Origin: Escherichia coli
GTDB lineage: Bacteria; Pseudomonadota; Gammaproteobacteria; Enterobacterales; Enterobacteriaceae
Assembly: GCF_011045215.1 (NCBI RefSeq)
Contig: NZ_CP049201.1
DNA: 64,000 nucleotides
Strand: one strand, 5' to 3'
Positions 704 to 64,000 of this stretch are shown here, in pieces (position 1 is the first letter of the stretch; each line of letters opens with the position of its first letter). The translations under genes and the position numbers were made by a program. The notes below the pieces were generated by a model. That model was given only the letters and a program-made list of their open reading frames with translations, had not been told where the DNA came from and did not search any database.

Positions 704-2308
704 ATGAAAAACAACCTTCTTTTTATATTCCTGTCGCGGATTAATAATGATAAAAGTATTGTGTTATCTGTGATTGTTTTTACGCTTGCTAATATGATTG
801 TATCATCAGGTGCACATCTGATTTATCGGGTATTATTCTTTACCCTGACTCTCCTTATTATCAAGAAGATAAAGTTATTTACGCTGCGTTTGATTCTTGC
901 TTTTCCGTTCACGTTACTGACTGCTGCAGATATCAGTATCAGCCTGTATTCATGGTGTACATTTGGCACAACATTTAATGATGGTTTTGCAATCAGTATC
1001 CTTCAGACAGATCCTGATGAAGTAATAAGAATGTTCAGGATGTATGTTGTTTATGTTATCGCATTTATTATCCTCTTTTTATTGTTCTTCTGTTCAGCAA
1101 TAAATAAAACGTCCTCATTGCCATCGGAAAAGGTCACGGTAATTACATTTTTATTGTTAATTACAGTAACGTTATATTCTTCCTTTCAGTTTGCGTTGAA
1201 GAAACAGTATCAAATAAATGAAGTTGATCCTTACATAGTCGCTTCCCGGTTTGCCACATATACCCCTTTCTTTAATCTGAACTATTTTGCACTGGCCGCA
1301 AAGGAGCATCAGAGATTAATGACGATTGCTGATACCATACCTCACTACGAGCTGATGATTACAGACAATAATATTGATGAATTTGTACTGATCATCGGTG
1401 AATCAGCAAGGACTGATAACATGTCCATTTACGGGTATTCGCGCCCAACCACACCAGAACTTCAGAAACAGAAATCACGGCTGAAACTGTTCACTCAGGC
1501 AATCAGTGGCGCACCTTACACTGCGCTGGCTGTTCCTCTGGCGTTGTCTGCCGATAGTGTACTGCATCATGATATCCGTAATTACCCTGATAACATTATC
1601 AACATGGCGAATCAGGCAGGGTTCGATACCTGGTGGCTCAGTGCGCAGTCCGCTTTCCGGCAGAACGGAACGGCTGTGGCCAGTATCGCCATACGGGCCA
1701 GAAACAGAATTTATGTCAGAGGCTATGATGAGTTACTGCTCCCACATCTGGCTGAAGCACTGAACAGTAATCCGGGAAGAAGGAAACTGATTGTTCTGCA
1801 TCTGACGGGCAGCCATGAACCAGTCTGCAGTAACTGGCCCAGAGATAAAGCCGTGTTTAAACCACTGGATACAGAAGAAGTCTGCTACGATAATTCCATT
1901 CATTATACCGACAGTTTGTTGGGGCGGGTTTTCGCCATGCTGGAAACGCGTCAGGCATCAGTCATGTATTTTTCAGATCACGGTCTGGAGTATGACCCGA
2001 CAAAAGAACATGCCTATCTTCATGGCGGAATAAAACCCAGCCAGCAGGCTTATCATGTTCCGATGTTTATCTGGTACAGCCCGGCTCTGGGAGAGCATGT
2101 CGATCGCCAGACGGTGAACAGCGTTTTTTCTACTGCGTATAATGATTATCTGATTAATGTATGGATGGGCGTAACCAGACCAGCTCAACCGAAAACGCCG
2201 GAGGAGGTGATCACCCGCTGGCAGGGGAAATCAAATGTTATTGATGCAAACCATAACGTGTTTGACTACAACGTATTACGAAAGAACTTTAATGAACCCC
2301 TGGAATAA
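704..2308 (+). CDS. Phosphoethanolamine transferase family protein (N-terminal multi-pass membrane region plus sulfatase-like catalytic domain; EptA/EptB/OpgE-like)
   Basis: 534 aa. Hydrophobic N-terminal third (e.g. LIIKKIKLFTLRLILAFPFTLL, VVYVIAFIILFLLFF). Periplasmic domain has the LIIGESARTDNMSIYGY motif typical of PEtN transferases, a candidate Thr nucleophile region (ISGAPYTALAVP) and a C-terminal HxxG-type region. Visibly AT-rich compared with the flanking core genes. Confidence 0.7.
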   Translation: MKNNLLFIFLSRINNDKSIVLSVIVFTLANMIVSSGAHLIYRVLFFTLTLLIIKKIKLFTLRLILAFPFTLLTAADISISLYSWCTFGTTFNDGFAISILQTDPDEVIRMFRMYVVYVIAFIILFLLFFCSAINKTSSLPSEKVTVITFLLLITVTLYSSFQFALKKQYQINEVDPYIVASRFATYTPFFNLNYFALAAKEHQRLMTIADTIPHYELMITDNNIDEFVLIIGESARTDNMSIYGYSRPTTPELQKQKSRLKLFTQAISGAPYTALAVPLALSADSVLHHDIRNYPDNIINMANQAGFDTWWLSAQSAFRQNGTAVASIAIRARNRIYVRGYDELLLPHLAEALNSNPGRRKLIVLHLTGSHEPVCSNWPRDKAVFKPLDTEEVCYDNSIHYTDSLLGRVFAMLETRQASVMYFSDHGLEYDPTKEHAYLHGGIKPSQQAYHVPMFIWYSPALGEHVDRQTVNSVFSTAYNDYLINVWMGVTRPAQPKTPEEVITRWQGKSNVIDANHNVFDYNVLRKNFNEPLE

Positions 2309-2364
2309 TTCGTTAAAGTAATTTACGACTCTATTCTTTTTTAAAGGAAACTTTCAGAAAATAA

Positions 2365-2385
2365 CCCCAGGGCGATAACCTGGGG
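2365..2385. terminator. Hairpin between the convergent PEtN-transferase and TPR-like genes; possible bidirectional terminator
   Basis: ccccagggcgataacctgggg: a 6-bp GC stem (cccagg/cctggg) flanked by A/T-rich sequence. Confidence 0.35.
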
Positions 2386-2454
2386 AAGGGGGTTTAGTGT
2401 GTTATTACTGGTGGATAAATTATTACTTGTTTGAAAAATACACTAATGCAATAT

Positions 2455-3498
2455 CTACTGATGCTGGATGCTTGAGTGTTTCATTCCTGCCGCTGAAAAC
2501 GGCAATATCCAGGGCCAGACATATTCACCGTTAATATTTCTGCATTTCTGTACAATTTCCTCAGAAAGTGTCTCATCAATTCTTTCCCACAACAACTTCT
2601 GCTGTCTTAAAATGCTTTCGCATATTTCGAAATCATCTTCCTGCATCAGCATTTCGGCGCATTTAATGATTTCTGCCCGTTCATGCAGCACAGAGGAATG
2701 GTTATAGAGCCAGTTTACAAACAGCAATGCTTCCGGATATTGTCCCCATAATGGTGAGTATGTTGCATAATAATCTTCGGCAGTATCCGGCCCGGCAGAA
2801 TAGTTATGCCATACAGCAAGAGGAAATGGATGCAGATTTCCGCACAGTATTTCTGCGATGTAAGTATTTGCCGTAAAGCCACGACGAAATGCAGTTGCAG
2901 CTTTTTCCAGTTCCCCATTAAGAAAATGCAGAAGGCCGAGTTCATACCAGTAAGGTGAAAATTCATCAGCGTACTCATTCAGTACACGGAAAGCTCGCTC
3001 ATGATCACCTGTTCGTAACAGTTCTGAACCCAACAACCAGCGGGTACCCTGATTATCTTCAGGATTGTATGCCAGTATTTTCTCAATGAGCATGATGGCA
3101 TCCTGATGACGTTGTAAATGTACATTTGCCAGGATTGCTGCATAAAGCGCGCGCAGATAAGGCCGGTTTTCGGGATGCATCCAGATGATTTCACCACTGA
3201 AACTTTCCGGGATGAGACGATTACCTGCCGCCAGTCCTTTAAGAGCGGCGTTCAGTGCCTTACGCGGGGCATTCTGCTCCAGAAATGCATATGCCAGATG
3301 AGCGTGTATATCAATAAAGTCAGGCTCCTGTTGAGCAAGGCGTCTGAGTTTGTTGATGTAACTCGCCTCACTGATTTCACCAGTATCGTATGTATCAAGC
3401 AGTTTTTCAAACTCCCCCGGTAATGGGCAAAACCAGGTATCCGGAAATACGAAACGCCCTTGGTTATCGTTTACTTTAAAGCGTAATTTGTCGTTCAT
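2455..3498 (-). CDS. Hypothetical protein with TPR-like helical repeats, function unknown
   Basis: 347-aa ORF with a clean start and an AT-rich upstream region. Ala/Leu-rich helical repeat character (e.g. ALKGLAAGNRL, YAAILANVHLQRHQDAIMLIEKILAYNPEDNQG, ELGLLHFLNGELEKAATAFRRG). No catalytic motif recognised. Confidence 0.55.
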   Translation of the reverse strand: MNDKLRFKVNDNQGRFVFPDTWFCPLPGEFEKLLDTYDTGEISEASYINKLRRLAQQEPDFIDIHAHLAYAFLEQNAPRKALNAALKGLAAGNRLIPESFSGEIIWMHPENRPYLRALYAAILANVHLQRHQDAIMLIEKILAYNPEDNQGTRWLLGSELLRTGDHERAFRVLNEYADEFSPYWYELGLLHFLNGELEKAATAFRRGFTANTYIAEILCGNLHPFPLAVWHNYSAGPDTAEDYYATYSPLWGQYPEALLFVNWLYNHSSVLHERAEIIKCAEMLMQEDDFEICESILRQQKLLWERIDETLSEEIVQKCRNINGEYVWPWILPFSAAGMKHSSIQHQ

Positions 3499-3850
3499 TT
3501 TCTGAGCCTGTAAAACGGATTGGACACAATCTGAAAAGCATAAAAGTCGTGATGTTGTGTATCAAGTCTTGTTTTTGTCCGGGATGAATGTTGTTTACAA
3601 TATCATCGACAGTGTTTTTATATGAGAATGAAAATTTATCTTTATCTGCATTCCAATGTATTGTGAATTGTCAGCTGAAACAGCATATTAATCGATTTTT
3701 TGATAATGGTGCTGAAATAACGACAGGATGATGATTGAAACTACTGGTATCAAAATTGTTAGCGGTCCATAATGGTGTGATGTTTTGAGATTGTTTATAG
3801 ATGCAATATTAAATATTTTGTCAAAAAACAAAAAATACCTAAAAATAAAG

Positions 3851-3888
3851 CATAAAAACAAAATTCCTCCGGACCAGGAGGCCGGAGG
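3851..3888 (-). terminator. Rho-independent terminator downstream of the integrase gene
   Basis: Stem cctccgg...ccggagg (3866-3888) followed on the minus strand by a T-rich run. Confidence 0.4.
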
Positions 3889-3928
3889 AGAATTTGTGGA
3901 TTGAGAGAAAATATCAGGACAAGTGCTC

Positions 3929-5119
3929 TTAACCCTGACTCTCTTGCTTAGAAAGCGAATCAATATAATCTGCGTACCACTGCATCATTTCACGGCGACC
4001 ATCGAGATACTGGGCATGATTATAGGTACCCCTGATGGCGTTTTTATCCACATGAGCTAACTGCATTTCAATCCAGGCGGAATTAAAGCCCTGTTCGTGC
4101 AGAATGGTACTCATGGTGTGTCTGAAACCGTGCCCTGTGAGTCTTCCCTTATATCCCAGTAATTCAATGACTTGGTTAATGCTTTCCTTACTAATTGGCT
4201 TGCGAGGATCGTTCCTACCGATAAAGACCAGAGGATGATGTTTTGTGATGGGTTCAAGTTGCTTAAATAGGGCAATGACCTGCTCAGAGAGCGGCACAAT
4301 ATGAGGTCGCTTCATCTTCATTACTTTTGCCGGAATCTCCCATAATTTTGTCTCAAAATCGATATCCTCCCAGCGTGCGAAACGTAATTCTTGTGTTCGT
4401 ACACCAGTTAACATAATGATCTGAGTAGCTGTCTTAGTGATGATACTTCCGGTATAACCCGCCAGATCGTTGAGGAAGTGGGGAAGTTCATTAGCAGTAA
4501 GAAAGGGAAAATGTACTTTTTTCGGTGTAGCTAAAGCACAGGCAAGATCGGGAGCAGGGTTGTAGTCTGCCCGACCAGTAACAATTGCATAGCGGAACAC
4601 TTCACCACAGCGCTGGCGGACTTTGCGCATTTTCTCCAGAGCTCCACGTTTTTCCATTTTACGCAGTGCTTCCAGTAACTCCATTGGTTTGATTTCGGCG
4701 ATAGGGCGTTTGCCAATGTAGGGAAAAATGTCTTTTTCAAAGGTATCAATGATTTCATCACGATAGCGTAATGACCACCGATCGGCTTTTGACTGATGCC
4801 ATTCGCGAGCAATGGCCTCGAACGTATTTTTCAAACTCATTTGTTGCGCGATTTTTTCTTCTTTTTTTGCCACCCCTGGATCGCCTCCAGCAGCGAGGAT
4901 TTTTCTGGCTTCGCTGCGTTTTTCACGAGCGTCGGCTAGCGTTACATCGGGGTATACGCCAATAGAAAGCATCTTTTCTTTACCAGCAAAGCGGTACTTC
5001 ATACGCCAGTATTTAGAACCATTAGTGTTAATCAGTAGATACATACCGCCGCCATCAGCAAGTTTATAGGGCTTTTCTTTTGGTTTTGCGGTTTTCACTT
5101 TAATATCGGTTAATGCCAT
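3929..5119 (-). CDS. int: P4-family tyrosine integrase (site-specific recombinase)
   Basis: 396 aa. C-terminal catalytic region with the conserved R...HxxR...Y residues (LTGHGFRHTMSTIL, IRGTYNHAQY). Same orientation as, and directly downstream of, the tRNA 3' end, the canonical layout for tRNA-targeting islands. Confidence 0.9.
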   Translation of the reverse strand: MALTDIKVKTAKPKEKPYKLADGGGMYLLINTNGSKYWRMKYRFAGKEKMLSIGVYPDVTLADAREKRSEARKILAAGGDPGVAKKEEKIAQQMSLKNTFEAIAREWHQSKADRWSLRYRDEIIDTFEKDIFPYIGKRPIAEIKPMELLEALRKMEKRGALEKMRKVRQRCGEVFRYAIVTGRADYNPAPDLACALATPKKVHFPFLTANELPHFLNDLAGYTGSIITKTATQIIMLTGVRTQELRFARWEDIDFETKLWEIPAKVMKMKRPHIVPLSEQVIALFKQLEPITKHHPLVFIGRNDPRKPISKESINQVIELLGYKGRLTGHGFRHTMSTILHEQGFNSAWIEMQLAHVDKNAIRGTYNHAQYLDGRREMMQWYADYIDSLSKQESQG

Positions 5120-5417
5120 GACATCCTCCGGCTTTTAATGAATTCATGTTCCTGAGGGGGACTTCTGCCAGTAATTAACCTGATACCCCCAATGCACCCC
5201 TTGTATAACAAAGATGTTGTTGAAAGCCGTTGTTATATATCATATTTTACCAATTATGGGGGTGCTGATATTTCAATAGGAAATAATACCCCCTAAAGTA
5301 CCCCCAAAAGCAACTTGATACGGGGTGAAGTCGGTTGACTTCTGGATACAAAGGAATCCTGATATACAAGGGATTAGAAGGGGTGGTTGACATCGGGGGA
5401 GTTCAGAAGATGTTAAT

Positions 5418-5512
5418 TGGCGGAAGATCACAGGAGTCGAACCTGCCCGGGACCGCTGGCGGCCCCAACTGGATTTGAAGTCCAGCCGCCTCACCGGAGA
5501 CGACGATCTTCC
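5418..5512 (-). tRNA. selC: tRNA-Sec (selenocysteine tRNA)
   Basis: 95-nt reverse-complement match to the E. coli selC sequence (GGAAGATCGTCGTCTCCGGTGAGGCGGCTGGACTTCAAATCCAGTTGGGGCCGCCAGCGGTCCCGGGCAGGTTCGACTCCTGTGATCTTCCGCCA) as I remember it; the 3' CCA is at 5418-5420. Confidence 0.95.
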
Positions 5513-34471: not shown

Positions 34472-34822
34472 AGTAAATAGCTGACTTATGGATGTGCTGG
34501 GGATTCTATGTATTTAGCTGTGGCTTTACCATTACTTTTCCCGTTTTTGACTTAAATAGCAATTTACCCGCCAATTCTTGCTGAACATCTATACTTTTTT
34601 TGTATTTTTATGCGATTCATTGATTTCTGCTGTACGTGCAGGAAGGAATCGCAGAGCAACAGTGAAAGAATATGGTTGCTAATGATTATATTTGATTGAT
34701 TTCTTTATTGAAAATCAACAATGTGCTTAAAAATCATTCGGGTCGGATTGCCGCGAAAGAAGTGATACACTAGCGCGTCAATATCAGTGCGGTATCAGTA
34801 TTCAGGTAGCTGTTGAGCCTGG

Positions 34823-34834
34823 GGCGGTAGCGTG
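34823..34834 (+). promoter_or_regulatory. ops element (RfaH-dependent antitermination signal) in the JUMPstart region upstream of waaQ
   Basis: GGCGGTAGCGTG in the 5' leader of the waaQ operon. Confidence 0.7.
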
Positions 34835-34883: not shown

Positions 34884-35942
34884 GTGGATAAGCCATTTCG
34901 AAGAATTTTGCTCATTAAGATGCGTTTTCATGGGGATATGTTATTAACTACTCCCGTCATTAGTTCGCTGAAAAAAAATTACCCTGACGCAAAAATCGAT
35001 GTGCTGCTTTATCAGGACACCATCCCGATCCTGTCTGAAAATCCAGAGATTAACGCGCTCTACGGCATAAAAAATAAAAAAGCAAAAGCCTCAGAAAAAA
35101 TTGCCAACTTTTTTCATCTCATCAAGGTATTACGTGCCAATAAGTATGACCTTATCGTCAATCTTACCGATCAATGGATGGTTGCTATACTGGTTCGCTT
35201 ATTAAATGCCCGTGTGAAAATTTCCCAGGATTATCATCATCGGCAGTCTGCTTTTTGGCGTAAAAGTTTCACCCATTTGGTGCCGTTGCAGGGTGGAAAT
35301 GTGGTGGAAAGTAACTTATCCGTGCTGACACCATTGGGACTTGATTCGTTGGTGAAGCAGACAACCATGAGTTACCCGCCTGCAAGCTGGAAACGTATGC
35401 GTCGCGAACTTGATCACGCTGGTGTTGGACAAAATTATGTGGTTATCCAACCTACGGCGCGGCAAATCTTCAAATGCTGGGACAACGCCAAGTTTTCCGC
35501 TGTGATTGATGCCTTACATGCTCGTGGTTATGAAGTCGTTCTGACGTCCGGCCCAGATAAAGACGATCTGGCCTGCGTCAATGAAATTGCGCAGGGATGC
35601 CAGACGCCACCAGTAACGGCGCTGGCTGGAAAGGTGACCTTCCCGGAACTTGGTGCGTTAATCGATCATGCGCAGCTGTTTATTGGCGTTGATTCCGCAC
35701 CGGCGCATATTGCCGCTGCAGTTAATACGCCGCTGATATCGCTGTTTGGTGCGACAGACCATATTTTCTGGCGTCCCTGGTCAAATAACATGATTCAATT
35801 CTGGGCGGGAGATTACCGGGAAATGCCAACGCGCGATCAGCGTGACCGAAATGAGATGTATCTTTCGGTTATTCCGGCGGCAGATGTCTTTGCTGCTGTC
35901 GATAAATTACTGCCCTCCTCCACGACAGGTACGTCGTTATGA
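34884..35942 (+). CDS. waaQ: LPS heptosyltransferase III
   Basis: GT9 heptosyltransferase; first gene of the long waa operon. The start is uncertain (GTG at 34884 or a downstream codon). Confidence 0.85.
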   Translation: MDKPFRRILLIKMRFHGDMLLTTPVISSLKKNYPDAKIDVLLYQDTIPILSENPEINALYGIKNKKAKASEKIANFFHLIKVLRANKYDLIVNLTDQWMVAILVRLLNARVKISQDYHHRQSAFWRKSFTHLVPLQGGNVVESNLSVLTPLGLDSLVKQTTMSYPPASWKRMRRELDHAGVGQNYVVIQPTARQIFKCWDNAKFSAVIDALHARGYEVVLTSGPDKDDLACVNEIAQGCQTPPVTALAGKVTFPELGALIDHAQLFIGVDSAPAHIAAAVNTPLISLFGATDHIFWRPWSNNMIQFWAGDYREMPTRDQRDRNEMYLSVIPAADVFAAVDKLLPSSTTGTSL

Positions 35943-37063
35943 TCGTTGCTTTTTGTTTATATAAATATTTTCCCTTTGGCGGTTTGCAGCGCGATTTTAT
36001 GCGTATTGCTCAGACAGTCGCCGCCCGAGGTCATCATGTTCGGGTTTATACCCAGTCGTGGGAAGGCGAATGCCCTGATGTATTTGAACTGATCAAAGTG
36101 CCGGTTAAATCGCATACCAATCACGGGCGCAATGCGGAGTATTTTGCCTGGGTGCAAAAACATTTACGCGAACATCCCGTCGATAAAGTCGTTGGATTCA
36201 ACAAAATGCCGGGGCTGGACGTTTATTATGCCGCTGATGTTTGTTATGCCGAGAAAGTAGCGCAGGAAAAAGGCTTTTTCTATCGCCTGACGTCACGTTA
36301 TCGCCATTATGCCGCCTTTGAGCGGGCAACCTTCGAACAGGGCAAGCCGACACAGCTGCTAATGCTGACAGATAAGCAAATCGCCGATTTCCAGAAACAT
36401 TATCAGACTGAAGCGGAGCGTTTTCATATTCTGCCACCGGGGATTTATCCTGATCGTAAATATAGCCAGCAGCCAGCTAATAGCCGTGAAATCTTCCGTA
36501 AGAAGAATGGAATAACCGAACAACAATATTTATTGTTGCAGGTCGGTTCAGACTTCACGCGTAAAGGTGTCGATCGTTCCATTGAAGCACTTGCTTCGTT
36601 ACCGGATTCGCTGCGCCACAACACATTGCTATATGTTGTTGGGCAGGATAAACCGCGAAAATTTGAGGCGCTGGCAGAAAAACGCGGCGTGCGCAGTAAT
36701 GTTCACTTCTTCTCGGGGCGCAACGATGTCTCGGAATTAATGGCGGCGGCGGATTTATTACTGCATCCTGCCTACCAGGAAGCGGCGGGAATTGTGCTGC
36801 TGGAAGCGATTACTGCAGGATTACCGGTACTAACAACAGCCGTTTGTGGCTATGCGCATTATATTGTCGAGGCCAATTGCGGCGAGGCTATTGTTGAGCC
36901 ATTCCGCCAGGAAACATTGAATGAGATTTTACGCAAAGCGTTAACGCAATCTTCATTGCGCCAGGCCTGGTCGGAAAATGCGCGACATTATGCTGATACA
37001 CAAGATTTATACAGTCTGCCAGAGAAAGCGGCGGATATCATAACGGGTGGTCTGGATGGTTGA
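35939..37063 (+). CDS. waaG: LPS core glucosyltransferase I (GT4)
   Basis: 374 aa; overlaps the waaQ stop by 4 nt (ATGA). Confidence 0.9.
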
Positions 37064-37853
37064 ACTTAAAGAGCCGTTTGCCACGTTATGGCGCGGTAAA
37101 GATCCTTTTGAGGAAGTTAAAACCTTGCAGGGTGAGGTATTTCGTGAACTGGAAACTCGCCGTACTCTGCGCTTTGAAATGGCGGGCAAAAGCTATTTTC
37201 TCAAATGGCATCGCGGCACGACCCTGAAAGAGATAATCAAAAATTTACTCTCATTGCGGATGCCAGTATTAGGCGCAGACCGCGAATGGAATGCGATTCA
37301 TCGACTGCGGGATGTCGGCGTTGATACTATGTATGGGGTGGCATTTGGCGAAAAAGGCATGAATCCGCTGACCAGAACTTCATTTATTATTACCGAAGAT
37401 CTGACACCAACCATAAGTCTGGAAGATTACTGTGCTGACTGGGCGACTAACCCTCCAGATGTTCGCGTAAAGCGTATGCTTATTAAGCGTGTCGCGACGA
37501 TGGTGCGCGATATGCATGCTGCGGGCATTAACCACCGTGACTGTTATATCTGTCATTTCCTGCTGCACTTGCCTTTTTCCGGTAAGGAAGAGGAGTTAAA
37601 AATTTCGGTAATTGACCTGCACCGGGCGCAGCTTCGCACGCGCGTTCCACGTCGTTGGCGCGATAAAGATCTTATTGGGCTTTATTTTTCTTCGATGAAT
37701 ATCGGCCTGACTCAGCGGGATATCTGGCGGTTTATGAAAGTGTATTTTGCCGCCCCGCTTAAAGACATTCTCAAGCAGGAACAAGGACTGCTGTCGCAAG
37801 CAGAAGCAAAAGCCACAAAAATCAGGGAAAGAACGATTCGAAAATCGTTGTAA
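37056..37853 (+). CDS. waaP: LPS core heptose(I) kinase
   Basis: 265 aa from [14 protein letters not shown]; kinase-like region [17 protein letters not shown]. Confidence 0.85.
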
Positions 37854-37895
37854 CCCGTAACTTATTTTTGCCAAAATTTTGGATACAGAATAAAT

Positions 37896-38903
37896 ATGTC
37901 TCAACTCAATGATAGTGACATCATCCTTTTTGAGTATAATTTTCATTATCAAAATATAAGATCTAAAAATACTCTTGATATAGCATTTGGTATTGACAGA
38001 AATTTTCTTTTTGGATGTGGTGTAGCCATCGCATCTATTCTATTAAACAATAGAGAAATCTCTTGTGAATTTCATGTTTTCACAGATTATATCAGTGATA
38101 AAGACAAGTTATATTTTTCCGATTTAGCAAAACAATATAATTCAAGAATTAATATTTATGTTATCAATTGTGATAAGCTGAAGTCATTACCAAGCACGAA
38201 AAACTGGACTTACGCTACATATTTTCGATTTATAATTGCAGACTATTTCTATAATAAACATGAAAAAATACTATATCTTGATGCAGATATTGCTTGCAAG
38301 GGTAGTATTAAAGAACTCTTAGATTATCAATTCTCTACTAATGAAATTGCCGCAGTTGTAGCTGAAAGAGATGTTGAATGGTGGCAGAATCGAGCCTCGG
38401 TATTAACTACACCACAATTAGCTTCTGGATATTTCAATGCTGGTTTTTTACTGATAAATATTGATGAGTGGAATCTTAATAACATTTCGTCAAAAGCTAT
38501 TGAAATGTTGCGTGATCCAGATTGGGTAAGTAAAATCACCCACCTTGATCAAGATGTACTGAATGTATTATTGAATGGTAAAGTGAAGTTTATTTCTGGG
38601 AAATATAATACCCGATATAGTATTAACTATGAATTAAAAGACAAAGTTGATAATCCAGTCAATGATGACACTGTGTTTATACACTATGTGGGACCTACAA
38701 AACCCTGGCATGAATGGGCTGACTATCCGGTGTCACGTAGTTTTTTGATCGCCAAAGCATCTTCTCCGTGGTGTAAAGAAGATTTACTTAAACCTGTAAA
38801 TAGCAATCAGTATCGGTATTGTGCAAAACATAAATTTAAACAAAAGCATTATATGGCGGGCATTTTTAATTATTTAAAGTATTATAAAGAAAAATGCTTT
38901 TAA
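37896..38903 (+). CDS. waaI: GT8-family LPS outer-core glycosyltransferase (position matches waaI of the R3 core type)
   Basis: 335 aa; GT8 hallmarks (LYLDADI DxD motif, HYxGxxKPW). Symbol assigned from gene order only. AT-rich. Confidence 0.5.
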   Translation: MSQLNDSDIILFEYNFHYQNIRSKNTLDIAFGIDRNFLFGCGVAIASILLNNREISCEFHVFTDYISDKDKLYFSDLAKQYNSRINIYVINCDKLKSLPSTKNWTYATYFRFIIADYFYNKHEKILYLDADIACKGSIKELLDYQFSTNEIAAVVAERDVEWWQNRASVLTTPQLASGYFNAGFLLINIDEWNLNNISSKAIEMLRDPDWVSKITHLDQDVLNVLLNGKVKFISGKYNTRYSINYELKDKVDNPVNDDTVFIHYVGPTKPWHEWADYPVSRSFLIAKASSPWCKEDLLKPVNSNQYRYCAKHKFKQKHYMAGIFNYLKYYKEKCF

Positions 38904-38928
38904 AGATTTAAGGTTAAAATAATTCAAT

Positions 38929-39636
38929 ATGATATATAATAAAACGATAAATGGGTTGAAAGTTTTCATAAAAGATAATGATCCCTTTTATGAGCAAGTT
39001 CTGAATGACTTTTTAACTTGCAGGGTTAAAACATTAAAAGTTTTTCGTTCTATTGATGATACTAAAGTTATTCTTATTGACACTGCTCGTGGACCTCTTG
39101 TACTTAAAGTTTATGCGCCAAAGCATAAAATGATCGAACGTTTCTTAAAATCTTGCATAAAAAAAGATTATTATGAAAATTTAATTTATCAAACCGATCG
39201 GGTACGTGGTGAAGGCATTCAATCAATTAATGACTATTTTTTGCTTGCTGAACGTAAAACATTAAATTTCGCGCATTATTATATTATGCTCATTGAGTAT
39301 ATTGAAGGTGTCGGGTTAAATGAGTATTTGGAAATTTCTGAAGAACTGAAGGATCAATTATCAGAATCGATAAAAGAGTTGCATCAGCATGGAATGGTGT
39401 CTGGCGATCCTCATAAAGGAAATTTTATAGTATCCGAAAAAGGTTTAAGACTAATTGACCTTTCAGGTAAAAAAACAACCGCAGTTTTAAAAGCAAAAGA
39501 TCGCATTGATCTTGAACGGCACTATAATATAAAAAATGAATTGAAAGACTTTGGCTATACATATCTTATATTCAAAAAGAAAATTAAAAAAGCAATCAGG
39601 GATGTAAAAGTCAAACTAGGTTTGAAGAGCAAATAA
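38929..39636 (+). CDS. waaY: LPS core heptose(II) kinase
   Basis: 235 aa, WaaP/WaaY-like small kinase, placed between the two GT8 genes. AT-rich. Confidence 0.6.
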   Translation: MIYNKTINGLKVFIKDNDPFYEQVLNDFLTCRVKTLKVFRSIDDTKVILIDTARGPLVLKVYAPKHKMIERFLKSCIKKDYYENLIYQTDRVRGEGIQSINDYFLLAERKTLNFAHYYIMLIEYIEGVGLNEYLEISEELKDQLSESIKELHQHGMVSGDPHKGNFIVSEKGLRLIDLSGKKTTAVLKAKDRIDLERHYNIKNELKDFGYTYLIFKKKIKKAIRDVKVKLGLKSK

Positions 39637-39660
39637 TGATTATGATGAAGGGTAATTAAA

Positions 39661-40674
39661 TTGGATTTTAAACATCTTACTCAATTTAAAGATATAATTG
39701 AACTGGACAAGCGCCCCGTTAAACTTGATGAACGGGAAACGTTTAATGTCTCATGGGGTATTGATGAGAACTACCAGGTTGGGGCTGCGATTTCAATTGC
39801 TTCAATTCTTGAAAATAATAAACAAAACAAATTTACCTTTCACATAATCGCTGATTACTTAGACAAAGATTATATTGAATTATTATCACAATTAGCAACG
39901 AAGTATCAAACAGTAATTAAATTATATCATATTGATTCTGAGCCATTGAAGACGCTACCTCAATCAAATATCTGGCCAGTATCTATTTATTATCGTTTGC
40001 TTTCATTTGACTATTTTTCTGCGCGATTGGATTCATTATTATATCTTGATGCTGATATCGTCTGTAAGGGTTCATTGAACGAGTTAATAGCATTAGAGTT
40101 TAAAGATGAATATGGGGCTGTGGTAATTGATGTAGATGCTATGCAAAGTAAAAGCGCTGAGCGTTTAGGTAATGAGGATTTTAACGGTAGCTATTTTAAC
40201 TCTGGTGTAATGTATATTAATTTACGGGAATGGTTAAAACAAAGACTAACGGAGAAATTCTTTGATCTATTATCAGATGAGTCAATTATCAAAAAATTAA
40301 AATATCCGGATCAAGATATTTTAAACTTAATGTTTCTACATCATGCTAAAATATTACCGAGAAAATATAACTGTATTTATACTATAAAGTCAGAATTTGA
40401 AGAAAAAAATAGTGAATATTACACCCGGTTTATTAATGATGAAACTGTCTTCATACATTATACTGGTGTAACTAAGCCATGGCATGATTGGGCGAACTAC
40501 GCATCTGCAGATTATTTTCGTAATATTTATAATATATCACCATGGAGAAATATACCTTATAAAAAAGCTGTTAAAAAACATGAGTACAAAGAAAAATATA
40601 AACACTTGCTTTACCAGAAAAAATTTCTCGATGGTTTTTTTACAGCAATTAAATATAATTTTATGAAAGGTTAA
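39661..40674 (+). CDS. waaJ: GT8-family LPS outer-core glycosyltransferase (position matches waaJ of the R3 type)
   Basis: 337 aa; GT8 hallmarks (LYLDADI, HYTGVTKPW). Appears to use a TTG start at 39661 because in-frame stops lie immediately upstream. Symbol from gene order only. Confidence 0.5.
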   Translation: MDFKHLTQFKDIIELDKRPVKLDERETFNVSWGIDENYQVGAAISIASILENNKQNKFTFHIIADYLDKDYIELLSQLATKYQTVIKLYHIDSEPLKTLPQSNIWPVSIYYRLLSFDYFSARLDSLLYLDADIVCKGSLNELIALEFKDEYGAVVIDVDAMQSKSAERLGNEDFNGSYFNSGVMYINLREWLKQRLTEKFFDLLSDESIIKKLKYPDQDILNLMFLHHAKILPRKYNCIYTIKSEFEEKNSEYYTRFINDETVFIHYTGVTKPWHDWANYASADYFRNIYNISPWRNIPYKKAVKKHEYKEKYKHLLYQKKFLDGFFTAIKYNFMKG

Positions 40675-40682
40675 CATTCGAG

Positions 40683-41825
40683 ATGGTTGATAAAATAATA
40701 TTTACAGTTACTCCTATTTTTTCAATTCCTCCTCGCGGAGCGGCCGCTGTTGAAACGTGGATGTATCAGGTCGCTCAGCGTACCAATTTCCCAAATCGTA
40801 TTGTTTGTATCAAGAATCCAGGATACTCAAATTACACCTTTGTTAATGATAATTGTAGTATTCATAGGGTTGGATTCAGTCGCATATATAAGCGGTTATT
40901 TCAAAAATGGACAAGACTTGATCCTCTTCCATATTCACAGAGAATATTGAATATTGCACATGATTTTCCTATAACGAAAGAAAGTGTTATTGTAGTTCAT
41001 AATAGTATGAAGCTATACACTCAAATTCGTAAGCGAGCTCCTCAGGCAAGAGTGGTTATACATATGCATAATGCATTTGAACCAAAATTGCTTGAGCAAA
41101 ATGTTAAAATGATAGTGCCTAGTTTATACTTGAAAAAGTATTACCAATCTTATTTAGCAAATGCAGATATTGAGATTGTACCAAATGGAATTGATTTAGA
41201 AACCTATCAATCTACTTTTCAGCCGATCACTAGAAGCGAACTTAATATCTCCCCTGAAGAGAAAATTATTTTTTATGCTGGGCGTATCGTCCCTGACAAA
41301 GGCATATTGCTGTTGATGCAATCATTCGAAAAATTGGCCGCTGCTCACAAAAATTTAAAATTAGTTGTGATTGGTGATTATACAGAAATGAGTAAAAGTG
41401 ACAAAGGTGCATATCAACGCAATGTCAGGGAAATTGCAAAACGTTTGAAGGATCGTTGCATTATGTTAGGAAGCATACCGCCTGAAAAGATGCATTGTTA
41501 TTACCCACTGGCAGATTTAGTCGTCATTCCTTCCCAGTTCCAGGAACCATTTTGCATGGTGGCAATTGAAGCTATGGGGGCTGGTAAGCCTGTTTTAGTG
41601 AGTACGCGTGGGGGGATGACGGAATTTGTCAAAGAAAATACTACGGGATTCCATTTAAAAGAACCTATGACTGCAGACTCCATAAGCAGCGATATTTTAA
41701 AAACGTTAGCGAATCCTGAATTAACAGCAGTTGCAAAGCAAGGTCAGGATTTTGTGTTTGATCACTACAGTTGGGATGGCGTAACTCAAAGATTCGAAGA
41801 GGTTATTCATAATTGGTTTGAATAA
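40683..41825 (+). CDS. waaD: GT4-family glycosyltransferase, last gene of the waaQ operon (position matches waaD of the R3 type)
   Basis: 380 aa; GT4 EX7E-type region (IPSQFQEPFCMVAIEAMGAGKPVLVSTRGGMTEFV). Followed by a hairpin with T-run (aaaaaggccgcattatgcagccttttttatttttt). Confidence 0.45.
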   Translation: MVDKIIFTVTPIFSIPPRGAAAVETWMYQVAQRTNFPNRIVCIKNPGYSNYTFVNDNCSIHRVGFSRIYKRLFQKWTRLDPLPYSQRILNIAHDFPITKESVIVVHNSMKLYTQIRKRAPQARVVIHMHNAFEPKLLEQNVKMIVPSLYLKKYYQSYLANADIEIVPNGIDLETYQSTFQPITRSELNISPEEKIIFYAGRIVPDKGILLLMQSFEKLAAAHKNLKLVVIGDYTEMSKSDKGAYQRNVREIAKRLKDRCIMLGSIPPEKMHCYYPLADLVVIPSQFQEPFCMVAIEAMGAGKPVLVSTRGGMTEFVKENTTGFHLKEPMTADSISSDILKTLANPELTAVAKQGQDFVFDHYSWDGVTQRFEEVIHNWFE

Positions 41826-41860
41826 ATAAAAAGGCCGCATTATGCAGCCTTTTTTATTTT

Positions 41861-43069
41861 TTACTTGTTTTTCATCGCTAATAATAAGCCGGCGTAAACG
41901 CCTAATAAATTTGGTTCAATTTGTTCTACGTTTCCACGGATAACAAAATAACCTATAAAAGATAGTAAGATTATATAATATGCATTATATGGTGAGCGGT
42001 ATATATTCTGGACGCCATTTTTTATACACTCTTTCAATATTGCACAGTATAGCATCATAAGACTTACCAGCCCTAATAAACCAGTGCCAAACCAGATGAA
42101 TAGCGCAAAATTATGTGGCCCTATTGATTGTCTAAAGGTCCATTCTGGATAATCAACGACACGTTTATTATAGACATCTTTATATGCAAAGTTACCGTAA
42201 CCATAACCAATAACAGGATTTTCTAATATTAGATCGAGTGCGCTGCCTTGAGTACCATTTGCATAGCGATAAGAACTATTAGTTTGTTGAAGTTTATACG
42301 TTAGCTTTGCGGTCATCTCCTTATGTGTGAAAATAACCGACAATGCAATGATGGAAACCATTACTCCTACTAATAGTAACTTCCATTGTTTAAACATCAG
42401 AATCCATATTAATCCAATGACTAACACGGAAAGCCAGGCCCCTCTGGATAAAGTTCCTAATATCAGAAAAATAAAAATAAAGCTTAGAACCACAAAAGAA
42501 ATGCGGTATTTTGCTGATTTAATAAGCCAGAGATTTAACAATGCAGGGAATAAAAAGACCATCGAGTCAGAAATGCTACGGTGTCTATAATCTGCGAATG
42601 GCATTATCCCTTGTTGATAGTCCTTATAATAGGCAATCAATTCAGAAAAACAGCGTAAGCTCAACGCACTAATAAATGAGAAGAAAACGATTTTTTCGAT
42701 ATCTTCTCTTTTTTCGTCTCTCAATATGACCGGTATTGCTATTGTGCATAGTAAAGTATTCTCAATGATAGCTTTGAAAATTTCCTTCATGCTAGCACCT
42801 GCATCTGGAGATTGAAGAAGTGACAGCAATGCAGCAATAGTTAATATGGCAACACTACCAAAAAGAAATGTTTTAAATAGTGATAGATAGTGTTTTGGCC
42901 GTTTGCAGAGATAGACGATTGTCGTTATTGTCATAAGAATAACAATAAGATGTTTATACCTTGTAATCCCACCCAAAAAATAGGTGGTAATAAATAAGAA
43001 TACGAGAGCTCTGTTCCAGTACGCTATCCAGTTTTTTTTCTCGAGAGAGAAAAATAATGTTGAGGTCAT
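41861..43069 (-). CDS. waaL: O-antigen ligase
   Basis: 402 aa, very hydrophobic polytopic protein; position immediately downstream of waaC in the hldD-waaF-waaC-waaL operon. AT-rich. Confidence 0.7.
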   Translation of the reverse strand: MTSTLFFSLEKKNWIAYWNRALVFLFITTYFLGGITRYKHLIVILMTITTIVYLCKRPKHYLSLFKTFLFGSVAILTIAALLSLLQSPDAGASMKEIFKAIIENTLLCTIAIPVILRDEKREDIEKIVFFSFISALSLRCFSELIAYYKDYQQGIMPFADYRHRSISDSMVFLFPALLNLWLIKSAKYRISFVVLSFIFIFLILGTLSRGAWLSVLVIGLIWILMFKQWKLLLVGVMVSIIALSVIFTHKEMTAKLTYKLQQTNSSYRYANGTQGSALDLILENPVIGYGYGNFAYKDVYNKRVVDYPEWTFRQSIGPHNFALFIWFGTGLLGLVSLMMLYCAILKECIKNGVQNIYRSPYNAYYIILLSFIGYFVIRGNVEQIEPNLLGVYAGLLLAMKNK

Positions 43070-49715: not shown

Positions 49716-49722
49716 CACGAAC

Positions 49723-49747
49723 AAGGGCTGGTATTCCAGCCCTTTTA
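49723..49747 (+). terminator. Rho-independent terminator after tdh
   Basis: aagggctgg-tatt-ccagccctt followed by tt. Confidence 0.5.
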
Positions 49748-49953
49748 TCTGAGGATAATCTGTTAAATATGTAAAATCCTGTCAGTGTAATAAAGAGTTC
49801 GTAATTGTGCTGATCTCTTATATAGCTGCTCTCATTATCTCTCTACCCTGAAGTGACTCTCTCACCTGTAAAAATAATATCTCACAGGCTTAATAGTTTC
49901 TTAATACAAAGCCTGTAAAACGTCAGGATAACTTCAGAGGTCGTCGGTAATTT

Positions 49954-50988
49954 ATGATGAACAGCACCAATAAACTTAGTGTTATTATTCCGTTATATAA
50001 TGCGGGCGATGATTTCCGCACTTGTATGGAATCTTTAATTACGTAAACCTGGACTGCTCTGGAAATCATTATTATTAACGATGGTTCAACGGATAATTCT
50101 GTTGAAATAGCAAAGTATTACGCAGAAAACTATCCGCACGTTCGTTTGTTGCATCAGGCGAATGCTGGCGCATCGGTGGCGCGTAATCGTGGGATTGAAG
50201 TGGCAACGGGCAAATATGTCGCTTTTGTCGATGCTGACGATGAAGTCTATCCCACCATGTACGAAACGCTGATGACCATGGCGTTAGAGGACGACCTCGA
50301 CGTGGCGCAGTGCAACGCTGACTGGTGTTTTCGTGAAACGGGAGAAACCTGGCAATCCATCCCCACCGATCGCCTTCGCTCAACCGGCGTCTTAACCGGC
50401 CCGGACTGGCTGCGGATGGGGCTTTCTTCGCGCCGTTGGACACACGTGGTCTGGATGGGGGTTTATCGCCGCGATGTTATTGTTAAAAATAACATTAAAT
50501 TTATTGCCGGATTACATCATCAGGATATTGTCTGGACAACAGAATTCATGTTTAACGCGCTGCGTGCGCGATATACCGAGCAATCATTATATAAATATTA
50601 TCTGCATAATACGTCAGTGAGTCGGTTGCATAGACAAGGGAATAAAAACCTTAATTATCAACGTCACTATATTAAGATTACCCGCCTGCTGGAGAAATTA
50701 AATCGAAATTATGCCGACAAAATTACGATTTATCCGGAATTTCATCAGCAAATAACTTACGAAGCATTGCGTGTTTGCCATGTGGTGCGCAAAGAGCCGG
50801 ATATTCTTACCCGCCAACGGATGATTGCCGAGATATTTACTTCCGGTATGTATAAGCGCCTGATTACCAATGTGCGCAGCGTGAAGGTGGGTTACCAGGC
50901 GTTACTGTGGTCTTTCCGCTTATGGCAATGGCGCGACAAAACGCGGTCGCACCATCGCATTACGCGTAGCGCCTTTAATTTGCGCTAG
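49954..50988 (+). pseudogene. waaH: waaH (yibD) GT2 glycosyltransferase interrupted by an in-frame TAA stop at codon 31
   Basis: Translation from the ATG at 49954 gives MMNSTNKLSVIIPLYNAGDDFRTCMESLIT, then TAA at 50044-50046, then the same frame continues TWTALEIIIINDGSTDNS... for another 313 codons to the normal stop at 50988. The track reports only the internal-Met remainder (50146..50988, 280 aa). Confidence 0.8.
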
Positions 50989-51934
50989 CGTTAAGTTTTG
51001 CCGCTTCGGGCTGTTTGCCCCAGCCTTGCCACTGATGCTGGAAGTAAACGATCAGCGTGCTCTGGCTGATGCTTTCGCTTAATACTTCAAAGAAGCGATT
51101 AGCATAAACAGGTTCTATCGGTTTCTTCGGTTTGCACAGCTTCACGCCACGGAACGGATTACGCGGTGTGTCGGGCACAGTGTTTTTCGGCGGTGTAGAC
51201 GTATCAACCTGCGGTTCATTCAGCAAGCTGCTGGCTTTCACCAGCGTAATGTCTGGCGGCAGGTTATAAACCATCTGTTGTAGCACGCGTACCGTTGAAG
51301 GGTGAGGATGCCCAATGGCAATGGTTGAACCGTTGCGACGCGCCAGATCAATTGCGCGATTGAACTGCACACGGATGTCCGCTTCGTTCTGTGAATCGTC
51401 GAGGAACACCTTCCGTTTAATAACCTTCACGCCAGTGCCTTGCGCGGCGCGCATCGCCTGGGTATTACCAATGGTTACGCTGTCGAGGAAGTAAAGATTG
51501 TAACGCTCCAGTGCCTGCATCACTTTCTGCATACCAAACAGGTTAGAGGTCATCTTGCTACCCATGTGGTTGTTGATCCCCACGGCATAGGGCACGTTAT
51601 TGACCGCACTACGAATAATGCGCTCAATTTCGTCGCTGCTCATCTCTGGGCGCAGCGTATTTTTCTCCAGCGGCTGTTTACTCAACGGTGCCATTGGTAG
51701 ATGAATCAACACTTCGTGACCGCTGTTATGCGCTTTGGTCGCCATCTCTCTGGCGTGCGGTGAATCGGGTAATACAGCGACGGAGATAGCGGAAGGCATC
51801 GCCAGCACCTGGTTTTCGTTGTGCGGGCGATACCCAAAATCATCAATGACGATGGCAAGTTTGCCAGCAAGTACGGGGGAGGAGAGCGCCAACAGAGCGG
51901 CAAATGCAAGAACGTTACGACGAAATGGAAACAA
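50975..51934 (-). CDS. yibQ: Divergent polysaccharide deacetylase family protein
   Basis: 319 aa; signal peptide; synteny with envC. Confidence 0.85.
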   Translation of the reverse strand: MFPFRRNVLAFAALLALSSPVLAGKLAIVIDDFGYRPHNENQVLAMPSAISVAVLPDSPHAREMATKAHNSGHEVLIHLPMAPLSKQPLEKNTLRPEMSSDEIERIIRSAVNNVPYAVGINNHMGSKMTSNLFGMQKVMQALERYNLYFLDSVTIGNTQAMRAAQGTGVKVIKRKVFLDDSQNEADIRVQFNRAIDLARRNGSTIAIGHPHPSTVRVLQQMVYNLPPDITLVKASSLLNEPQVDTSTPPKNTVPDTPRNPFRGVKLCKPKKPIEPVYANRFFEVLSESISQSTLIVYFQHQWQGWGKQPEAAKLNASAN

Positions 51935-62879: not shown

Positions 62880-62985
62880 GGTGCGCCTTATCTTGCCAGA
62901 TGCGGCGTGAACACCTTACTCGGCCTATAGGAATGTGCAGAATCACCCTGTAGGCCTGATAAGCGTAGCGCATCAGGCAATTTGG
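62880..62985. repeat. REP/BIME-like extragenic palindromic repeats (two inverted REP units)
   Basis: gccagatgcggcgtgaacaccttactcggcctatagg and ccctgtaggcctgataagcgtagcgcatcaggca resemble the enterobacterial REP (PU) consensus. Confidence 0.55.
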
Positions 62986-63019
62986 CGTTTGCCCTTAGTC
63001 ACACTAACTTAATGGATCA

Positions 63020-64000
63020 TTACCACTGAATACCGGCACCGAGTGCGGCGGAGTATTCACCCTGGCTATTGGTACTACCTTGTAATTTGTAGACCCAACG
63101 ACCATTGGCGCTCACCATCGATACACCTAAAGCAACTGCCGATTCACCGTTGTAAGTACCGCCACCAATAGAAGCCATGCTGGCACCTGGAGTGTAAGCC
63201 TGCGGCAGACCGGTCATTGCCATTGCAGAAGCGATACCACCGCTCAACTTGCTTTCAGTTTTAGACAGTTTGTTATCCATCTCAACCATCCGCTGATCGG
63301 TGTATTGCTTCGTTTCCTGCACGCTTTGCTTCAACTGCGCGTAGTTCACCGCGTCGTTGTTGTTGACGCCAGCGGAGACGTTGCTGATACGAGTCGTACC
63401 GCCGTTGCCGCCACCGAGGGTGATATTGCTATAGTCGATAGAACCATCAGCTTTGGTGTCGTAACGCACGCCGCCCGCCTCAGAAGACTTCAACTGCGCA
63501 ACGTTAACAGCATCGGTAGCATTTTTACCTGCGGCAACGTTAGTAATACGGCGTTGGTTAGTGGAAGAACCTACAGAGATTGTATTTTCTTCATCTGCAA
63601 CGGAACCGGTACCCAGTGCGACACTGTTGTCAGCGGCAGCAATGGAACCAGAACCAATAGCAACGCTATCTTTACCCTGGGCGTTGGCATCTACGCCATC
63701 GGTGTTGGTCTTGAAGTACTTGGTGCTACCGGTGGTTACAATGTCGCCAATACCGTTTTCGATATTAGTAACGCGAGTATCCAGATTAGTGACCTGATTG
63801 TTCAGGTTAGTAATGCTCTGGGTATTTTGCGCTACGCGCTCATCAGTGACTTTCAACTGACCCACGTTAACCGCATCGGTATCCGCTGAACCAGCTGCGA
63901 CGTTTGTGATCTGACGTTGACCGTCTTCACTACCAACAGAAAACTCACCTACAGAGTTCTGTGGTGCGTCCATGTTGTAGGCGGTGTAGCCAGTCTGTGC
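63020..64000 (-). CDS. Trimeric autotransporter adhesin (YadA-like), C-terminal part only; gene continues beyond the right window edge
   Basis: Frame is open to the window end. Repetitive Gly/Ser/Thr/Asn-rich head/stalk repeats ([54 protein letters not shown]), a coiled-coil neck and a YadA-type C-terminal anchor ending ...[10 protein letters not shown]. Confidence 0.75.

Follow-up and report, generated by a model that had tools for sequence, protein, structure and literature searches.

We analyzed a 64,000-nt stretch of the Escherichia coli contig NZ_CP049201.1 (assembly GCF_011045215.1), hereafter the window, in which the ORF map places waaH (yibD) in a slot with kbl-tdh upstream and the convergent yibQ-envC-gpmM genes downstream. 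The same kbl-tdh-waaH/yibQ-envC order is found in the annotated O145:H28, O157:H7, and K-12 records, where the orthologs carry the PGAP label 'waaH: UDP-glucuronate:LPS(HepIII) glycosyltransferase'. The 344-codon waaH frame starts at the ATG at 49954, and its sole interruption in the frame translation of the window is an ochre codon, TAA, at 50044-50046 on the plus strand, which makes up codon 31. Codons 1-30 translate as MMNSTNKLSVIIPLYNAGDDFRTCMESLIT, and, beyond the TAA, the same frame remains open for 313 further codons (TWTALEIIIINDGSTDNS...) until the TAG at 50986-50988, giving 345 codons when both stops are counted. The features of the locus are collected in Table 1.

Table 1. Features of the waaH region and of the core-oligosaccharide locus in the window.
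Feature	Coordinates	Strand	Basis
R3-type waa core-oligosaccharide locus (waaQGP-I-Y-J-D on +, waaL on -)	34884..43069		Order and gene lengths as in O157:H7
tdh-waaH intergenic region with waaH promoter and leader, unchanged	49716..49953	+	Identical to K-12 over 238/238 nt; 0 differences from the close relative GCA_910665095.1
waaH codons 1-30, sole part translatable from the native start	49954..50043	+	Frame translation
Premature ochre TAA (Q31*), from CAA by C-to-T at 50044	50044..50046	+	Comparison with CAA orthologs
Rest of waaH frame, codons 32-344 and TAG, open but separated from the start codon	50047..50988	+	Translation
Second private C-to-T, GCG to GTG (A277V)	50783	+	Comparison with relatives
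yibQ, intact, convergent with waaH, 14-nt overlap with the waaH 3' end	50975..51934	-	99.1% amino acid identity to O157 YibQ

With codon 31 taken as Gln, the translated frame scored 631.1 bits against the NCBIfam equivalog NF007482 (PRK10073), for which the cut-off is 423, and the match covered profile positions 1-334 of 334. A preliminary description, made from the sequence alone, had named the gene waaH and had called its lesion a nonsense codon without a frameshift; the first claim is borne out by the NF007482 score, by the kbl-tdh/yibQ-envC synteny, and by the PGAP names of the orthologs, and the second by the open frame that runs past the TAA to the TAG. Owing to the TAA at codon 31, an uninterrupted coding sequence for the 344-aa enzyme is absent at this locus, and the waaH copy is a pseudogene of the NF007482 family, a functional member being ruled out. 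Judged by alignment, the lesion changes one base in a gene whose identity to intact orthologs is otherwise 99.1-99.8%, and a chance match is excluded.

Elsewhere in the window, a search for IS elements and internal repeats found none. Shigella, a group with many pseudogenes, was considered as the origin and rejected on this ground, and also because the source proteins carry an E. coli label. A small island at 704-5512 adjoins the tRNA-Sec gene selC (5418-5512, minus strand), and comprises (i) a P4-type integrase gene (3929-5119, minus strand), (ii) a gene for a TPR protein (2455-3498, minus strand), and (iii) a gene for a sulfatase-family protein (704-2308, plus strand), which is named phosphoethanolamine transferase in its sources and whose exact sequence is found only in the chromosome of this strain. 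The last of these is possibly another enzyme that modifies LPS or lipid A. At the other end, at 62954-63985, the 3' part of an ehaG-like trimeric autotransporter gene is 92.7% identical to the O157:H7 copy, as compared with ∼98% for the rest of the region.

Alignment with K-12 waaH showed 1026 of 1035 nt to be identical, and the nine differences include a C-to-T change at nt 91 of the gene, where the Gln codon CAA of K-12 is replaced by TAA; the Gln that the preliminary description had given for K-12 at this position is indeed there. Codon 31 is likewise CAA in O145:H28 and O157:H7, as well as in the fetched copies L011, L012 (the close relative treated below), and L013-L015 (the IS1-interrupted alleles treated below), such that CAA was found in 8/8 other fetched copies spanning codon 31, and six truncated contigs give CA or C. 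While waaH was found in 5,424 of 5,426 complete E. coli genomes, a 63-nt probe with the stop at its center found matches in 5,243 complete E. coli genomes, none of them at 100%. Moreover, an exact 44-mer containing the TAA had no match in either the GTDB species representatives or the JGI metagenome contigs, and a full-length WaaH with the Q31/V277 combination was not found in a collection of 15 billion proteins.

Exact matches to the 30-aa N-terminal peptide in the same protein collection were considered as possible further stop alleles and rejected, as all of them are contig-end truncations with CA(A), and none are stop codons. Six of these contigs (L003-L008, with ends at nt 90-92 of waaH, corresponding to window 50043-50045) break off precisely at ...ATTACGCA, within codon 31, with no IS sequence at that end. 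That such ends coincide with the position of the stop is explained by the query, which was the 30-aa peptide itself. Ends of this kind recur among many independent draft and Logan contigs (60 index blocks), whereas IS1-junction contigs continue into the IS for ∼30 nt. The ends are suggestive of a branch point in those samples, for example from a rearrangement, a duplication, or a population that is mixed.

Because the TAA allele is known from the data of one strain alone, we asked how far the base itself can be trusted. A Logan contig, SRR11014969_69 (58.9 kb), matches the window without any difference over 6,813 nt around waaH, TAA included, and over 4,319 nt at yicI; the offset is 4,090 at both loci, and the Logan and deposited assemblies are therefore collinear across ∼47 kb. 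The second C-to-T change in waaH (A277V) is also present in this contig, which further harbors the only occurrence, in the 15-billion-protein collection, of the 270-aa product that a gene caller had drawn from GTG 50176. A sequencing or consensus error at 50044, with the strain truly carrying CAA and a functional waaH, is in our judgment very unlikely. Such an error would account for an allele that is missing from all 5,243 matched genomes, from the GTDB representatives, and from the JGI metagenomes, and a Dcm site (CCTGG, 50048-50052) does sit 4 nt downstream of the changed base, methylation motifs being generally known to disturb some long-read base callers. However, the de Bruijn-graph assembly of SRR11014969 has the same base, in a contig identical to the window wherever the two were compared; the cytosine that Dcm methylates is not the base that changed; the second private C-to-T in waaH is reproduced as well; and the locus is free of indel noise relative to close relatives. 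With a single, intergenic indel in 21 kb against its closest relative, the assembly does not have an error-prone appearance. The T at 50044 thus appears to be real and an assembly error unlikely, with the limit that run SRR11014969 may be the read set that polished the deposited chromosome; the escape of a sequencing error, which the preliminary description had left open, is made unlikely by the Logan assembly. Dcm-driven deamination was also considered as a mutational cause and ruled out, as the methylated C of CCTGG is a different base, 5 nt downstream of the mutated one.

The age of the mutation was examined in relatives, defined as strains sharing the exact WaaL protein of the window and retrieved with their flanks. 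Among these, L012 (GCA_910665095.1) shares 99.948% identity with the window across 21,209 nt, the differences being nine substitutions and one 2-nt indel. Its waaH is intact, with 344 codons, and the gene differs from that in the window only at nt 91 (C91T, Q31*) and nt 830 (C830T, A277V). Both changes are derived in the lineage of the window, since O145, K-12, and L011 share the C, and both Gln31 and Ala277 are invariant in 12/12 full-length cluster members inspected. The preliminary description had spoken of one inactivating change; its CAA-to-TAA change at codon 31 stands, but the TAA is not the sole private change in the gene, the C-to-T at 50783 (A277V) being the other. As a near-identical relative retains an intact gene, the inactivation of waaH is recent, and these comparisons place it, as far as public data go, in one strain only. 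It may have arisen either in nature or during laboratory passage.

Over these 21 kb, the sole indel against this relative involves two nucleotides (TT) at window 46325, in the rfaD-htrL intergenic region. An apparent enrichment of changes in waaH (two of the nine substitutions, both protein-altering, versus three of seven elsewhere) was discarded as an indication of relaxed or positive selection, the numbers being too small. Among the 5,426 complete RefSeq E. coli genomes, identity to the window peaked at 99.7% for waaH, 98.8% for 40000-64000, and 97.8% for 690-24000, and the first 689 nt had no counterpart in the best matches. The window is unusually distant from all of these genomes, and its lineage, as judged by these identities, is poorly represented among them.

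To assess the consequence for the protein, we mapped the GT2 domain on the frame with codon 31 taken as Gln. Pfam PF00535 (GT2, GT-A fold) covers residues 9-137 (E 1.6e-38), and a reading of the sequence places NDGSTD at residues 42-47 and DAD, the DxD motif, at residues 93-95, both of which lie past the stop. Residues 1-30 include only strand β1 (SVIIPLYN) and part of helix α1 of this domain. The stop cuts these residues off from the remainder.

Candidate in-frame restarts beyond the stop are TTG 50146, TTG 50149, GTG 50176, GTG 50200, and ATG 50257. The preliminary description had placed an internal Met at 50146, which is wrong; the codon is TTG, for Leu65 of the native protein, and it figures in the mechanical ORF list merely because TTG can act as a start. 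The first in-frame ATG past the stop is that at 50257 (Met102). Its further claim, that a restart would cost the protein the N-terminal nucleotide-binding segment, is sound, in that a start at 50146 or beyond would cost the product at least residues 1-64. We regard it as scarcely credible that a restart downstream (at TTG 50146, GTG 50176, or ATG 50257) gives a truncated yet active enzyme. In-frame start codons do exist, and the gene caller annotated the 270-aa product from GTG 50176 (P0001), but any restart product would be devoid of β1, α1, β2, and NDGSTD (residues 9-47) of the GT-A nucleotide-binding half; the GTG 50176 product, for instance, keeps only Pfam positions 69-130 of 168. Further, a Shine-Dalgarno-like purine run is absent from the 20-mers upstream of the candidate starts.

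It is also highly improbable that the stop is read through, either naturally or by means of an ochre suppressor tRNA encoded elsewhere in the genome, to an extent that yields enough full-length WaaH. Both release factors recognize UAA, whose basal read-through in E. coli is very low, as is well established. Nor is UAA used for programmed recoding in E. coli, selenocysteine being specified by UGA and pyrrolysine by UAG, again as established knowledge. The sole tRNA gene in the window is selC, with anticodon TCA, and no Rfam element was matched in or near waaH.

The lesion does not lie in the transcription signals, because the 238-nt upstream intergenic region is unchanged, being identical to that of K-12 and showing 0 differences from L012. 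A search of the window for the Pho-box consensus with up to three mismatches gave no match, and direct PhoB control of waaH has been disputed by a recent ChIP-seq study (PMC10294691). What we claim for the promoter is restricted to the upstream region being, on alignment, unchanged and identical to K-12. A polar effect of the stop is not expected either, as waaH is monocistronic and has no same-strand gene downstream, yibQ being convergent.

What the loss of WaaH would mean depends on the core type of the strain. WaaQ, WaaG, WaaP, WaaI/O, WaaY, WaaD, and WaaL of the R3-type locus are all intact and share 97.5-99.7% amino acid identity with their O157:H7 counterparts, and waaJ is ∼98% identical at the DNA level. 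At 34796-34834, Rfam RF01707 matches (55 bits) a JUMPstart (ops-containing) element that precedes waaQ, as would be expected of the long core operon. HepIII carries GlcN in R1 and R3 isolates, and GlcUA in K-12, B, R2, R4, and Salmonella (PMC6358824); transfer of GlcUA by WaaH has been reported for the K-12, B, R2, and R4 cores, and not for R1 or R3 (PMC6358824; bioRxiv 10.1101/536201). In O157:H7 EDL933, an R3 strain, phosphate starvation induces waaH 46- to 80-fold, and GlcUA was not detected (bioRxiv 10.1101/536201). Moreover, a ΔwaaH mutant of EDL933 showed an unchanged LPS pattern and lowered biofilm in low phosphate (bioRxiv 10.1101/536201).

These reports bear on the claim, in the preliminary description, that the strain probably lacks the GlcUA modification. 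The change is indeed probably inactivating, but the predicted phenotype was drawn from K-12, while the core here is R3; since O157:H7 has the same type of locus, and showed no detected GlcUA in spite of an intact, strongly induced waaH, the loss of GlcUA may be moot in this strain. It would be a real phenotype only if the strain is without wabB, the gene for the HepIII GlcNAc transferase, which lies outside the window. The best-supported prediction is that the practical effect would be closer to that in O157:H7 ΔwaaH, namely less biofilm under phosphate starvation and an LPS that looks unaltered, than to the GlcUA loss described for K-12.

Natural null alleles of waaH were also found in other lineages. 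IS1 is inserted after nt 126 of the gene in three assemblies, namely GCA_005382925.1, SRR22851171, and SRR30421288 (L013:3127-3278, L014, and L015), and the complete genome C-SRM-3 (NZ_CP123197.1; L016:3971-5198) has an IS1 together with a deletion of the middle of waaH, which leaves 66 nt at the 5' side and 399 nt at the 3' side. A further fragment in the protein collection (P0017, ...TALEVMTPTY) reads as an IS1 end after ∼nt 112 of waaH, and the AT-rich 5' segment of the gene may be an IS1 target. In O157:H7 PV15-279, PGAP labels waaH 'frameshifted', and the gene has a 1-nt insertion near nt 983 (L010:17941-18976); waaJ (GT8) of this strain is annotated as a frameshifted pseudogene too (L010:7648-8660), and both frameshifts may be either assembly errors or real. 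Among the complete E. coli genomes, 46 had no single match spanning 80% of waaH, and 76 had no match to nt 31-153 of the gene. The existence of independent natural null alleles indicates that E. coli can do without waaH and loses it repeatedly, and the window adds one further case. Bacterial genomes ordinarily vary in this way: a gene for LPS modification that is dispensable and conditionally expressed carries a nonsense mutation private to one strain, a known kind of change in a known gene.

It could be argued that loss of waaH was selected in this R3-core lineage, either by a phage or host factor needing a surface structure made by WaaH, or by the cost of a strongly phosphate-induced enzyme with HepIII already occupied. 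Both private changes in waaH are protein-altering, and the gene has been lost independently via IS1 in other lineages, which is compatible with selection and is not proof of it; we consider a selected loss, as opposed to neutral decay, unlikely. Were it true, the strain would be a natural knock-out able to reveal the substrate of WaaH in R3-core E. coli.

Taken together, we favor, with a probability of roughly 0.9, a recent, strain-private null allele of waaH, created by the C-to-T change at 50044 that converts CAA to the ochre TAA, and leaving no active UDP-glucuronate:LPS(HepIII) glycosyltransferase. In the mechanism that we propose, (i) the transition at 50044 would convert the Gln31 codon into TAA; (ii) translation from the native start would halt after 30 residues, ahead of the GT-A nucleotide-binding half; (iii) the active glycosyltransferase would not be produced, a loss of both protein and activity that we infer from the domain map; and (iv) the effect would be limited to WaaH, with its promoter untouched and no same-strand gene downstream.

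For annotation, it follows that waaH in this assembly should be labeled a pseudogene containing an internal stop, and that the 270-aa downstream ORF of the gene caller is unfit for use. The strain offers a natural waaH null in an R3-core background, which matters little beyond the strain itself. Nevertheless, paired with GCA_910665095.1, which has the intact allele and differs by ∼10 changes over 21 kb, it could be used to probe the role of WaaH in R3-core E. coli, where an LPS product of WaaH has not been found, though WaaH affects biofilm under phosphate starvation.

The interrupted gene can be compared with known systems at several levels. At the level of the fold, the N-terminal 110-130 residues of WaaH align (E ∼1e-28) with 5HEA (GalT1) and 3BCV, which are solved GT2 enzymes of the GT-A fold, including the (I/V)NDGSTD and DxD motifs, and a conserved Gln in both (SLLRQT and ALLAQT) aligns with Gln31 of WaaH. 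Their acceptor and donor specificities differ from those of WaaH, so that the kinship is one of fold only. At the level of the gene, K-12 WaaH (YibD) occupies the same chromosomal slot and belongs to the same NCBIfam equivalog with the same GT2 domain, whereas the window gene has TAA for CAA at codon 31, as well as A277V, and resides in a host with an R3, not a K-12, core; the function described for the K-12 enzyme is the addition of GlcUA onto HepIII when PhoB/R is induced, the HepII phosphate being lost. Among natural nulls, the IS1-disrupted alleles arose independently and affect the same 5' segment, although their mechanism is IS1 insertion, with or without deletion, while that in the window is a point nonsense mutation. 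The best available proxy for the phenotype is the engineered ΔwaaH mutant of O157:H7 EDL933, whose set of R3 core genes is the same and in which the WaaH function, predicted to be lost here, is lost; it differs in being a constructed deletion in a strain with a plasmid-borne wabB, whereas the lesion in the window is a point mutation.
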